Below the pieces are notes generated by a model. That model was given only the letters and a program-made list of their open reading frames with translations. It was not told the origin of the DNA and ran no database searches. From IMG/VR virus record IMGVR_UViG_3300037501_000255: a stretch of DNA of 64,000 nt. The stretch is one strand, 5' to 3'. The position numbers and the translations under genes are program-made. The stretch comes from a virus. Lineage: Duplodnaviria; Caudoviricetes. This document shows positions 54,996 to 56,390 of the stretch, piece by piece; positions within the stretch are counted from its first letter, which is position 1; the number at the start of each line of letters is the position of its first letter.

Positions 54996-55472
54996 CTACA
55001 GGAGAGCGCCCGTAAAGTTAAGGGGACGAGTTTGGTCGGTGCTGAATTTTGGAATATACTGCTGAGTGAACAATACAGGATCTACAGCAAGTACAGGCAA
55101 TTCATGTGGGCGACAGGAGACGACCTCGTCTCCTTCCTTGAAGAACAACCTGCCGGCCCCTGCCTGAGTCAGTAAATTCACGCAAAGAGGACATGGCCGA
55201 CTATCTCGACAATCATCAGAAGCTTGAGCGCGGTTAAATCTGTAGATACAGATTTTGTCGCCGTTCAGATTAAAACCGCTTTTTCTAACAAGGTCCACCT
55301 CGGCATGTAGACTGCAGTTGAAATAACTGAAGTCGCGCCGGTACTTGATGCCATTAACGCCGTAGCTAACAACATGGCCGCCGCGAATTTGCAGCGCGGC
55401 AACCAAGTGCTGCTCTTCGTTACTAAATCTCCGAGCCACGCGCTCGGCAAATGCCATGTGATTGTAGTACAT
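54996..55472 (-). CDS. Zn-dependent deaminase-fold protein
   Basis: LHAEVDL...SRPCPLC. Confidence 0.75.
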   Translation of the reverse strand: MYYNHMAFAERVARRFSNEEQHLVAALQIRGGHVVSYGVNGIKYRRDFSYFNCSLHAEVDLVRKSGFNLNGDKICIYRFNRAQASDDCRDSRPCPLCVNLLTQAGAGRLFFKEGDEVVSCRPHELPVLAVDPVLFTQQYIPKFSTDQTRPLNFTGALL

Positions 55473-55537
55473 ATCACCTACACCATATAGAAAGTGTCCA
55501 CCAAAGCCAATCAAATCTATACTCTACAGCAAAGAAC

Positions 55538-56203
55538 CTATAGACACACAGTGTCTTTGGAAAGAGAAGCGGCTGTCGGCAGCGCGAGAGCATCGTCTCC
55601 ATCATGGGGACCTTCGGCCATAATCTTTTTACGAATGACCTTTTCCAGGCCAGGGTTGATAACCAAAGCCTCTGGCACAATGCAGTGCCGGATTCGATTG
55701 CGAGCATATGCGGTATCCGAATTCGAAGCATCCTCGGCCCATGCTACGCCATGACGCGAACACCATGAAATCAATTCTGACTTAGGGGTCAGTCTGAATG
55801 GGCGAATGACATTCTTGTTGCGGTAAGGAATAATCTTTCCCTCACCATGAAGAGAGGAGAAGATCCATGTCTCAATACAGTCGTTGAGATTGTGGGCGGT
55901 GATTACTGGTAGCTGAAGGGAATGAAGAAATGCATAGCGCTCATTTCGCCAGTATTCCTCCCGCGACTCTCGAGCCATGCGCCCGCGCTGCACACAGCCT
56001 GTAGTCAATTCAAGGCCGTACTTTTCGCAGAAAGCGCGCACAAATTCTTCAGTTTGTGCGGAATGTTGCGTGCCATGATTAAAGTAGGCAACGCGAGGTT
56101 TTGTTGCGCGTCGCATTAGAAAGGAGAGTGCTGCCATGCTGTCTACGCCGCCAGAGCATGCGACATAAAAGTCGTGTGGAATCTTGCCTTCAAGCCGGAT
56201 CAT
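55538..56203 (-). CDS. tilS: tRNA(Ile)-lysidine synthetase, catalytic domain only
   Basis: CSGGVDSM, NHG, RNERY, TAHNLNDCIET, IRPF, EDASN....Y.RNRIRH; no C-terminal domains. Confidence 0.88.
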   Translation of the reverse strand: MIRLEGKIPHDFYVACSGGVDSMAALSFLMRRATKPRVAYFNHGTQHSAQTEEFVRAFCEKYGLELTTGCVQRGRMARESREEYWRNERYAFLHSLQLPVITAHNLNDCIETWIFSSLHGEGKIIPYRNKNVIRPFRLTPKSELISWCSRHGVAWAEDASNSDTAYARNRIRHCIVPEALVINPGLEKVIRKKIMAEGPHDGDDALALPTAASLSKDTVCL

Positions 56204-56221
56204 GGTGCACCTGTGGTAAAA

Positions 56222-56304
56222 TGGTGGGCCAGGTGGGATTTGAACCCACATTTTCAGAACCAATTACCCTTACTCCGTTATGAGCGGAGCGCGACTACTG
56301 GCCC
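56222..56304 (-). tRNA. Non-canonical tRNA(CAU), Ile2-like, with no D-arm and a 23-nt variable region
   Basis: GGGCCAG-TAGTCGCG-CTCCG-CTCATAA-CGGAG-(23 nt)-GTGGG-TTCAAAT-CCCAC-CTGGCCC-A-CCA. Confidence 0.75.
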
Positions 56305-56390
56305 GTATCCATACGGCGCTGCCGCCATCCAACAGACACAATCCTTTATTTCAGAACAGCCCACAGGGGGCTGTTAATTAATTCATGCGC

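Follow-up and report, generated by a model that had tools for sequence, protein, structure and literature searches.

A conserved phage tRNA(CAU) gene with a probably reordered core beside a catalytic-domain-only TilS

The IMG/VR virus record IMGVR_UViG_3300037501_000255 (Duplodnaviria; Caudoviricetes), derived from a freshwater jumbo phage, carries on the minus strand a tRNA(CAU) gene of 83 nucleotides (nt) at positions 56222-56304 of the window, by which we mean the whole 64,000-nt stretch analysed here. The gene has no D hairpin at the usual place and lies 18 nt upstream of tilS, which encodes a tRNA(Ile)-lysidine synthase (TilS) reduced to its catalytic domain. We consider it probable that this is a working tRNA of a phage-specific family with a rewired core, that the rewiring corresponds to the transposition of one block of the cloverleaf, and that the tRNA and its catalytic-domain-only TilS together supply an AUA-reading tRNA-Ile2. 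We also lean towards a broader view, in which this would be a natural non-cloverleaf phage tRNA used in ordinary bacterial translation, and the CAU member and its minimal TilS would form a self-contained AUA-decoding pair.

Read 5′ to 3′ on the minus strand, the gene opens with the acceptor 5′ strand GGGCCAG (56298-56304), which forms a perfect stem of 7 base pairs (bp) with CUGGCCC (56226-56232; G3-C70, C4-G69 and C5-G68 among the pairs), followed by A73 (56225) and an encoded CCA (56222-56224); the two acceptor strands stand at the gene ends in their normal order, and the gene is not circularly permuted. An 8-nt linker, UAGUCGCG (56290-56297), joins the acceptor stem to the anticodon arm CUCCG-CUCAUAA-CGGAG (56273-56289; anticodon CAU at 56280-56282), with its 5-bp stem, 7-nt loop, U33 and purine at position 37. 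Between this arm and the T arm GUGGG-UUCAAAU-CCCAC (56233-56249; 5-bp stem, 7-nt loop of the UUCRANY type) lies a 23-nt segment that contains AAUUGGUU (56258-56265), a D-loop-like string that can be numbered A14 A15 U16 U17 G18 G19 U20 U and has its GG at 56260-56261. The string is preceded by a 3-nt bulge, UAA (56270-56272), leading from the anticodon stem, and by GGG-U (56266-56269), and is followed by a connector directly before the T stem (56250-56257), made up of CUGAAA, an A21-like A (56251) and a 48-like U (56250). These parts are as the initial annotation had described them from the sequence, including the pairs C4-G69, C5-G68 and C29-G41, all of which are present. The break in the cloverleaf order, with no D hairpin (positions 10-25) separating acceptor stem and anticodon stem, likewise stands: the Rfam tRNA model RF00005 recognises the gene (43.9 bits, E 1.9e-7; gathering score 29) by aligning 3 nt to 13 D-arm positions and placing a 20-nt insertion 5′ of the T arm, and the relatives of the gene agree.

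The main evidence that this layout is a structure of its own comes from its relatives. IMG/VR and metagenome contigs were scanned with patterns and the matches passed through a stem-checking script; this yielded 26 distinct rewired CAU genes, all with a linker of 7-8 nt and a pre-T-arm segment of 21-28 nt; their acceptor stems all differ, which argues that the family is old and diverse. In a MAFFT alignment of these 26 genes (A1), 96.8% of the cells pair and 18 of 19 pairs change on both sides, values reached by 0 of 500 shuffles and nowhere near those of slid registers; the family sequences are related, so these shuffle controls overstate independence. All seven acceptor pairs covary across the family, and the anticodon stem is 100% paired, with covariation at four of its pairs. 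There is also a fourth helix, whose 3 bp form between linker bases 12-14 and the base triplet directly before the motif U-A-R-YY-GG-U (columns 12-14 with 38-40). This linker helix is 94.9% paired and changes on both sides at 3/3 pairs (pair types CG/AU, GC/CG/AU/UA and GC/CG/AU), taking forms such as CGG/CCG, CGC/GCG, CAC/GUG, AGG/CCU, CUC/GAG and CGA/UCG. RNAalifold, run unguided, predicts the same 3-bp helix, and a second alignment (A2) of family-model matches, to which other anticodons were added, gives the same pattern, although A2 is fitted to the model and is not independent of the model structure. As judged by these alignments, four covarying helices are shown: the acceptor, T and anticodon stems and the 3-bp linker helix. 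In the window gene, the linker bases CGC (12-14, within 56290-56297) fall in the alignment on the 5′ side of this helix, and GGG-U (56266-56269), the equivalent of positions 10-13, would supply its 3′ strand, giving G-C, GxG and G-C, then U.U. The weak AGGG/TTCT hairpin that had originally been drawn in the 23-nt segment is not borne out: it is unconserved, and its 5′ strand (AGGG, in the RNA AGGG/UUCU) is taken up by the covarying linker helix, with whose 3′ strand the GGG aligns.

Outside the helices, alignment A1 is invariant at U8 and A9, at the U-A after the linker helix, at GGU, at an A two bases before the T stem and, in the T arm, at G53, U54, U55, C56, A58 and C61; the middle A of the UAA bulge is also invariant, the bulge equivalent being 4-5 nt long in other subgroups of the family. 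No other non-helical feature is as conserved across the family as the D-loop-like string with its GG 5′ of the T arm, with G44, G45 and U46 invariant and A40 nearly so in the 26 sequences, and this invariance fits the proposal of the initial annotation that the GG contacts the T loop from the other side of the molecule. In the window gene the corresponding sequence is UAAUUGGU ... A-U, that is, the D-loop-like U-A-R-YY-GG-U followed by A and the base that would pair with R15. The invariant bases fall where canonical tRNAs have their tertiary partners (U8, A14-like, G18, G19, U20, A21-like, G53, U54, U55, C56, A58 and C61). In addition, the R15-like base tracks the last base before the T stem (A-U 29, or 30 after one hand correction, G-C 6 and G-G 3; in the CAU set alone A-U 20, G-C 3 and G-G 3), a covariation that, going by these counts, matches the R15:Y48 Levitt pair of normal tRNAs.

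We propose that these features reflect a non-circular permutation of the cloverleaf, in which block 10-21 (the 5′ strand of the D stem plus the D loop) would have been moved from between positions 9 and 22 to between positions 47 and 48. It is this block that we take to be displaced, because the linker strand enters the anticodon stem as 22-26 do, and the opposite strand, followed by the D-loop consensus, behaves like 10-13. The proposed order would be acceptor, U8 A9, 22-25, 26, anticodon arm, short bulge, 10-13, A14 R15 YY G18 G19 U20 ... A21, Y48 and T arm, and the linker UAGUCGCG is read as the invariant U8 A9, an extra G, U-C-G-C (22-25 equivalents) and G (26 equivalent). The resulting stack, counted from the 5-bp anticodon stem through a single layer and 3 bp to a U.U or C.U layer, would make ten layers, the same number as the anticodon stem, position 26 and the D stem contribute in a normal tRNA. 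The D-stem equivalent would still stack on the anticodon stem, and U8-A14, R15-Y48, the contacts of G18 and G19 with the T loop and A21 would stay available, so that an L-like shape may be kept. The tRNA would probably be excised from a transcript shared with tilS, the adjacent TilS would convert C34 to lysidine, and the modified tRNA would then be charged by the host isoleucyl-tRNA synthetase (IleRS).

The rewired layout extends well beyond the CAU anticodon. R1, a covariance model derived from the CAU genes, scores the window gene at 76.6 bits, a circular value since the window gene is in the seed, and scores non-seed members at 40-80 bits (contigs L006, L194 and L040 and the phages PA11, Yaboi and tikkala); canonical tRNAs that reach the E-value cut-off of the same search score about 19-36 bits. 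R1 retrieves Ile-GAU genes in the same layout (L006, G001/L194, L092, L039 and L021), Ile-UAU genes (L040, L070 and L021) and Arg-UCU, UCG, ACG and CCU versions, and the stem-checking script found a Tyr-GUA version. Rewired Ile-GAU, Ile-UAU and CAU genes stand in tandem in L021, and L070 has two different rewired CAU genes. Three members, all unannotated, lie in named phage genomes: an Arg-UCU gene in Pseudomonas phage PA11 (NC_007808.1 47672-47751, overlapping the 3′ end of an annotated HNH endonuclease coding sequence), an Arg-CCU gene in Streptomyces phage Yaboi (NC_048730.1 91004-91080) and an Ile-GAU gene in the crAss-like Kehishuvirus tikkala (OQ198717.1 95577-95653). To judge from these matches, rewired phage tRNAs are a large, unannotated family, and the architecture, which had been thought unfamiliar in phages, is widespread among them. 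When 596 Gb of prokaryote genomes were scanned with a pattern covering part of the family variants, four matches came up, none of which scored with the family model. ARAGORN failed to report the rewired genes of L010 and G001, and missed or misdrew every rewired gene in the loci where it was run; the Rfam model places the window gene above its gathering score. Compared with the Arg and Ile-GAU members, the window gene has the CAU anticodon, is tied to a phage TilS and shows a weakened linker helix (GxG).

Several other unusual tRNA genes came to light in the same material. The Tyr-GUA versions (L106, L128 and L099) have a 5-bp linker helix and extra pairing that may be a class II variable arm. 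More than 40 IMG/VR contigs (for example L117, L123 and L137; many from sample 3300045988) encode a tRNA(CAU) with a normal D-arm and a hairpin variable arm of 17-23 nt, a class II-like shape that is unexpected for Met or Ile tRNAs, and in L024 (10386-10458) such a gene stands directly before a TilS gene. In L001 (1891-1973), a tRNA(CAU) 1 kb upstream of a related tilS has a 3-bp D stem, an 11-nt variable region and no encoded CCA, and looks intermediate in shape. ARAGORN also reports a tRNA with anticodon CUA, of the amber-suppressor type, within the tRNA island of G001 (L194:8486-8561), which may point to stop-codon reassignment or suppression.

The gene that follows the window tRNA, tilS (55538-56203, minus strand; PF01171, E 7e-32), begins with an ATG (56203) 18 nt after the tRNA CCA, preceded by a Shine-Dalgarno-like AGGTG at 56208-56212. 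As initially annotated, its product of 221 amino acids (aa) is an N-terminal catalytic domain only: it scores 119.4 bits against TIGR02432, the TilS N-terminal domain (cut-off 93.6), and 55 bits against the full-length model NF007942 (cut-off 606), and it aligns to residues 28-227 of the 317-aa Aquifex aeolicus TilS and 16-198 of the 433-aa Escherichia coli TilS. The alignments are confined to the N-terminal catalytic domains of three solved TilS proteins and stop before the C-terminal tRNA-binding domains CTD1 and CTD2, which the phage protein lacks. The PP-loop SGGVDS and the HxxND, RP, ED-SN and RNRIRH blocks are conserved relative to A. aeolicus TilS (PDB 1wy5), and the protein has 1581 homologues, mostly of ~200 aa and mostly metagenomic. 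CTD2 of TilS reads the acceptor stem (PMC1635315), and from this role and the domain content of the phage enzyme we infer that a ~200-aa TilS without C-terminal domains should contact mainly the anticodon arm and would hence be indifferent to the body of the tRNA.

Such indifference would suit the distribution of the two genes. Same-strand tilS is adjacent to the rewired CAU gene in the window and in L014, L010 and L151, and lies 1.5 kb away in L015. The closest TilS relatives (70-76% identity) are found in the sister phages L005, L006 and L007, beside canonical cloverleaf tRNA(CAU) genes that directly precede tilS in L005 and L006; in L007 the gene lies further upstream, at a distance of about 1 kb. 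The canonical D-arm in these three reads UA-AUUC-AAUUGGUUA-GAAA-U, and the same string occurs after the anticodon arm in the window gene. L006 has both forms: its CAU gene next to tilS is canonical, and 1.1 kb away stands an Ile-GAU gene of the rewired type. On a TilS tree, enzymes beside rewired and canonical tRNAs are interspersed, with four label changes, no better than shuffled labels; this tree is poorly resolved, and it shows interspersion only and does not date the switch between tRNA types. The initial annotation had proposed a co-evolved enzyme-tRNA pair, and this part has to be given up: with the closest enzymes beside canonical tRNAs, tRNA types that do not follow the TilS tree and rewired CAU tRNAs in phages without TilS, the gene contexts indicate that the tRNA-TilS pair is not specifically co-evolved.

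The tRNA itself is probably a tRNA-Ile2 for AUA, modified by the adjacent TilS, as its sequence marks suggest. In bacteria, G3 or A3 (not C3-G70), C4-G69 and C5-G68 mark tRNA-Ile(CAT) as against Met and fMet tRNAs (Silva et al., PMC1635315), and the window tRNA has the full set of Ile(CAU) marks, namely the CUCAUAA loop, A73, G3-C70, C4-G69 and C5-G68. Family-wide, C4-G69 occurs in 22/26 members, while other acceptor pairs vary freely. The original proposal that the pair serves AUA decoding is upheld in that the tRNA is most likely a TilS substrate and ATA makes up 33% of Ile codons (19.4 per 1000 codons in 59 long open reading frames of the window), but not in its premise of AT-rich genes: the surrounding DNA has a GC content of about 48%.

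A number of points weigh against this reading. Transcription, processing, modification and charging of the tRNA are all steps that we infer from sequence, and the block transposition is a model: an extended anticodon arm would be another way to describe these helices. Taken by itself, the CAU set gives a modest R15:Y48 signal, which 8 of 500 shuffles reach. In the subgroup of the window gene the linker helix is weak (C-G, GxG and C-G, that is, 2/3 pairs, plus U.U) and is fixed in that form in all three variants, and RNAfold favours a different local register in the window tRNA. That register (U11.G37/C12-G36) is itself disfavoured, because the linker substitution U11 to A in L010 would break it and improves the homology-based register, where it turns the 13:22-like U.U into A-U. 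As to the enzyme, no TilS was found near rewired CAU genes of other subgroups in the DNA fetched (tblastn and a profile hidden Markov model from 120 homologues), nor in five whole viral contigs with rewired CAU genes, among them the 224-kb G001 (91% complete); rewired CAU tRNAs thus occur without a phage TilS, and the TilS link is not general. As to identity, the Met-like mark C3-G70 is present in 7/26 family members, C29-G41 is unconserved in the family, and the marks that separate Ile from Met were defined on canonical bacterial tRNAs.

The last of these points bear on an alternative interpretation, that the gene encodes a working rewired tRNA of elongator tRNA-Met or dual identity whose adjacency to tilS is incidental and reflects tRNA-island packing. 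An unmodified CAU anticodon reads AUG, and on this interpretation rewired CAU tRNAs in phages without TilS and the C3-G70 members would find a ready place, as would the two rewired CAU genes of L070, which could be one Met and one Ile. We consider it unlikely, because the window tRNA itself bears the Ile(CAT) marks G3-C70, C4-G69 and C5-G68 (PMC1635315), because tilS lies directly 3′ of the tRNA in four divergent phages and the same slot holds a canonical tRNA(CAU) in the sister phages, and because the phage already holds two canonical CAU tRNAs. These are adjacent at L203:6146-6307, on a contig of the same phage (100% identical over the shared part), ~3.7 kb past the window end, and have U32 loops UUCAUAC and UUCAUAU; one of them shows an initiator-like frame (GCGGG...CCCGCAACCA), but its acceptor stem begins with U1-A72 and its anticodon stem lacks GGG/CCC. 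G001 similarly has one fMet-type, one other canonical and one rewired CAU gene, and its only tRNA-Ile(GAU) is likewise rewired, which shows that in that phage the rewired form is used for an isoleucine anticodon other than CAU; CAU and GAU make up the whole rewired set of G001.

A probable tRNA-Ile2 also has to be set against the possibility that the gene is a conserved tRNA-shaped RNA with no decoding role, either a nuclease decoy or a binding partner or regulator of TilS or other tRNA enzymes. In its favour are the non-canonical core, the position of the element in the tilS leader in the window, and a report that phage tRNAs counter tRNA-targeting defences (PMC10264068). We nonetheless judge this interpretation distinctly improbable, because what is kept under selection is the apparatus of a translating tRNA: the acceptor stem, A73, CCA, a TUC-type T loop, U33 and A37. 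Conservation among relatives makes the same case. The window tRNA is 100% identical in L014, where the upstream 100 nt are also identical and the tilS DNA is 70% identical; in L010 and L151 its identity is 96.4%, and there the upstream 100 nt are 54-58% and the tilS DNA 59-66% identical; in both of these the similarity begins exactly at tRNA G1. Identity of 96-100% against divergent flanks and tilS implies strong purifying selection over the full length of the gene, the linker and the 23-nt segment included. In L151/L165 the anticodon stem carries a double compensatory change, CUCCG/CGGAG to CCCCG/CGGGG, and the family forms a coherent anticodon set (CAU, GAU, UAU, Arg and Tyr). A narrower version, a cis-regulatory tilS leader, was rejected because the tRNA and tilS can be 18 nt or as much as 1.5 kb apart and elsewhere there is no tilS at all. 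That the odd shape serves to evade nucleases, as the initial annotation had wondered, is pure speculation; stability or neutral drift would be other conceivable reasons for the rewired form.

The same conservation speaks to the idea of a decaying tRNA pseudogene that arose by internal rearrangement of the canonical tRNA(CAU) of the sister phages. Those phages do hold the canonical gene in the same place, with a D-arm string like the displaced block, and the linker helix of the window subgroup contains a GxG mismatch; we nevertheless regard decay as very unlikely, because the gene is 96-100% conserved while the tilS DNA has fallen to 59-70% and the upstream 100 nt to 54-58% (L010 and L151), because its anticodon stem has undergone compensatory substitution, and because every helix covaries in the diverse family of which it is a member. 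Canonical tRNAs in relatives, which the initial annotation had named as evidence against its reading, are present beside tilS in L005-L007; the rewired gene is kept in L014, L010 and L151/L165.

An assembly error is equally hard to reconcile with the data. The same gene, identical or 96% identical, is found in the independent contigs L014, L010, L151/L165 and L203, and contigs from three further studies span it without indels, none restoring the D-arm that the initial annotation had feared lost in assembly. The possibility that such a deletion occurred, or that the true gene is the 98-nt fold (56222-56319; 3-bp D stem and 11-nt D loop) that ARAGORN itself reports, is negligible, because conservation in the relatives starts at G1 and the extra 15 nt upstream are unconserved in L010/L151, because the acceptor stem of that fold would contain a C.C mismatch, a U.C mismatch and a G.U pair, because ARAGORN calls nothing in L010, and because the same sequence comes from five independent contigs and from three further runs. 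By these comparisons, the tRNA(CAU) gene is confirmed as real, neither an assembly artefact nor a pseudogene.

Other searches with the locus gave no further copies: blastn of a 2-kb region against 50,697 phage records and an exact 23-mer search of IMG/VR returned no match, and the pattern CTCATAA-N5-TAAGGGTAAT returned three matches in IMG/VR, all by chance and none tRNA-like. Some boundaries recur at the tRNA. In L014 the match is 100% through the upstream intergenic region and the tRNA and falls to 70% in tilS (near 56219-56222), and several contigs from other runs end at 56216-56222 and 56250-56256. A scan of the minus strand beside the tRNA for promoters and terminators found nothing usable. 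Directly upstream of the tRNA are genes for an ABC-transporter ATPase and permease (56391-57982, minus strand), in the same synteny in L014 and L203. Directly after tilS lies a deaminase-fold gene of 172 aa (54996-55514, minus strand; PF00383, 27.2 bits), which could encode a tRNA-editing deaminase; the tilS-deaminase pair recurs in L005, L006, L010 and L017.

If the proposed permutation is correct, a conserved and covarying phage family with a reordered core would change the view that bacterial tRNAs are cloverleaves only. Such a tRNA would be unprecedented on two counts, as a natural departure from the cloverleaf outside organelles and as a tRNA with a non-circular permutation. Because standard finders miss or misfold the rewired genes and GenBank leaves them unannotated, the tRNA repertoires and codon-supply analyses available for phages are incomplete. 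The CAU member and its 221-aa TilS would offer a direct test of how little of the tRNA body is needed by lysidine synthesis, IleRS, EF-Tu and the ribosome, as well as a possible starting point for orthogonal tRNA design, and the cultured carriers PA11, Yaboi and Kehishuvirus make experiments feasible now.

These expectations depart from current descriptions of bacterial tRNAs. Every known bacterial tRNA is stated to be a cloverleaf, and cytosolic tRNAs to vary in structure only in the length of their arms (PMC11551756). Neither phages nor viruses come up in a review of non-canonical tRNAs from 2020 (PMC7609411), and in the literature searched we found no published description of phage tRNAs that lack the D hairpin or are permuted. 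The nearest precedent for function is artificial: E. coli HisRS, EF-Tu and the ribosome accept a D-arm-less tRNA once PNPase is mutated (PMC11551756).

Among natural systems, the animal mitochondrial D-armless tRNAs (tRNA-Ser(AGY) and nematode tRNA-Ser(UCU)) resemble the window tRNA in having a short connector in place of the D hairpin and in being used in translation (PMC7609411, PMC9427863). They have lost the D loop and the contact between D and T loops, are flexible or Y-shaped and are served by co-evolved organellar enzymes, whereas the window tRNA keeps a D-stem-like helix, GG and the core bases in a new order and must use ordinary bacterial machinery; with an invariant GG and T-loop consensus, and a gene in a phage genome, it falls outside the mitochondrial class. 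The closest formal parallel is the non-circular permutation of RNAs (Eckert and Weinberg 2023, PMC10085705), in which elements relevant to the three-dimensional structure likewise occur in a changed 5′-to-3′ order; the published cases that we found are self-cleaving ribozymes, and the introduction of that paper states that no non-circular permutation was known before. The circularly permuted tRNA genes of algae (Soma, PMC3978253, cited in that paper) differ in that the permutation is circular and processing restores a normal tRNA, whereas the window tRNA has normal ends and a moved internal block, with no obvious restoring route.

The enzyme has closer counterparts. The TilS proteins of the Pseudomonas jumbo phages MIJ3 and PA5oct (PMC6892783) are likewise phage-encoded, with a PP-loop ATP-pyrophosphatase domain and the catalytic domain only, and the 221-aa enzyme belongs to a large clade of ~200-aa, mostly metagenomic proteins. 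The short type II TilS of A. aeolicus (PDB 1wy5) shares the PP-loop domain and the TilS motifs; at 317 aa it has a single C-terminal domain, and the 221-aa phage TilS is without even that. As for the tRNA, the canonical tRNA-Ile2(CAU) genes, of the E. coli ileX type and including the copies in L005-L007, share with the window gene the CUCAUAA loop, A73, G3-C70, C4-G69, C5-G68, a 7-bp acceptor stem, a 5-bp T stem and an encoded CCA, and the copies in L005-L007 also share the slot before a phage tilS and the D-loop string AAUUGGUU. They differ in that the window gene has no D hairpin between positions 9 and 26 and carries the equivalents of the D-stem 5′ strand and the D loop 3′ of the anticodon arm.

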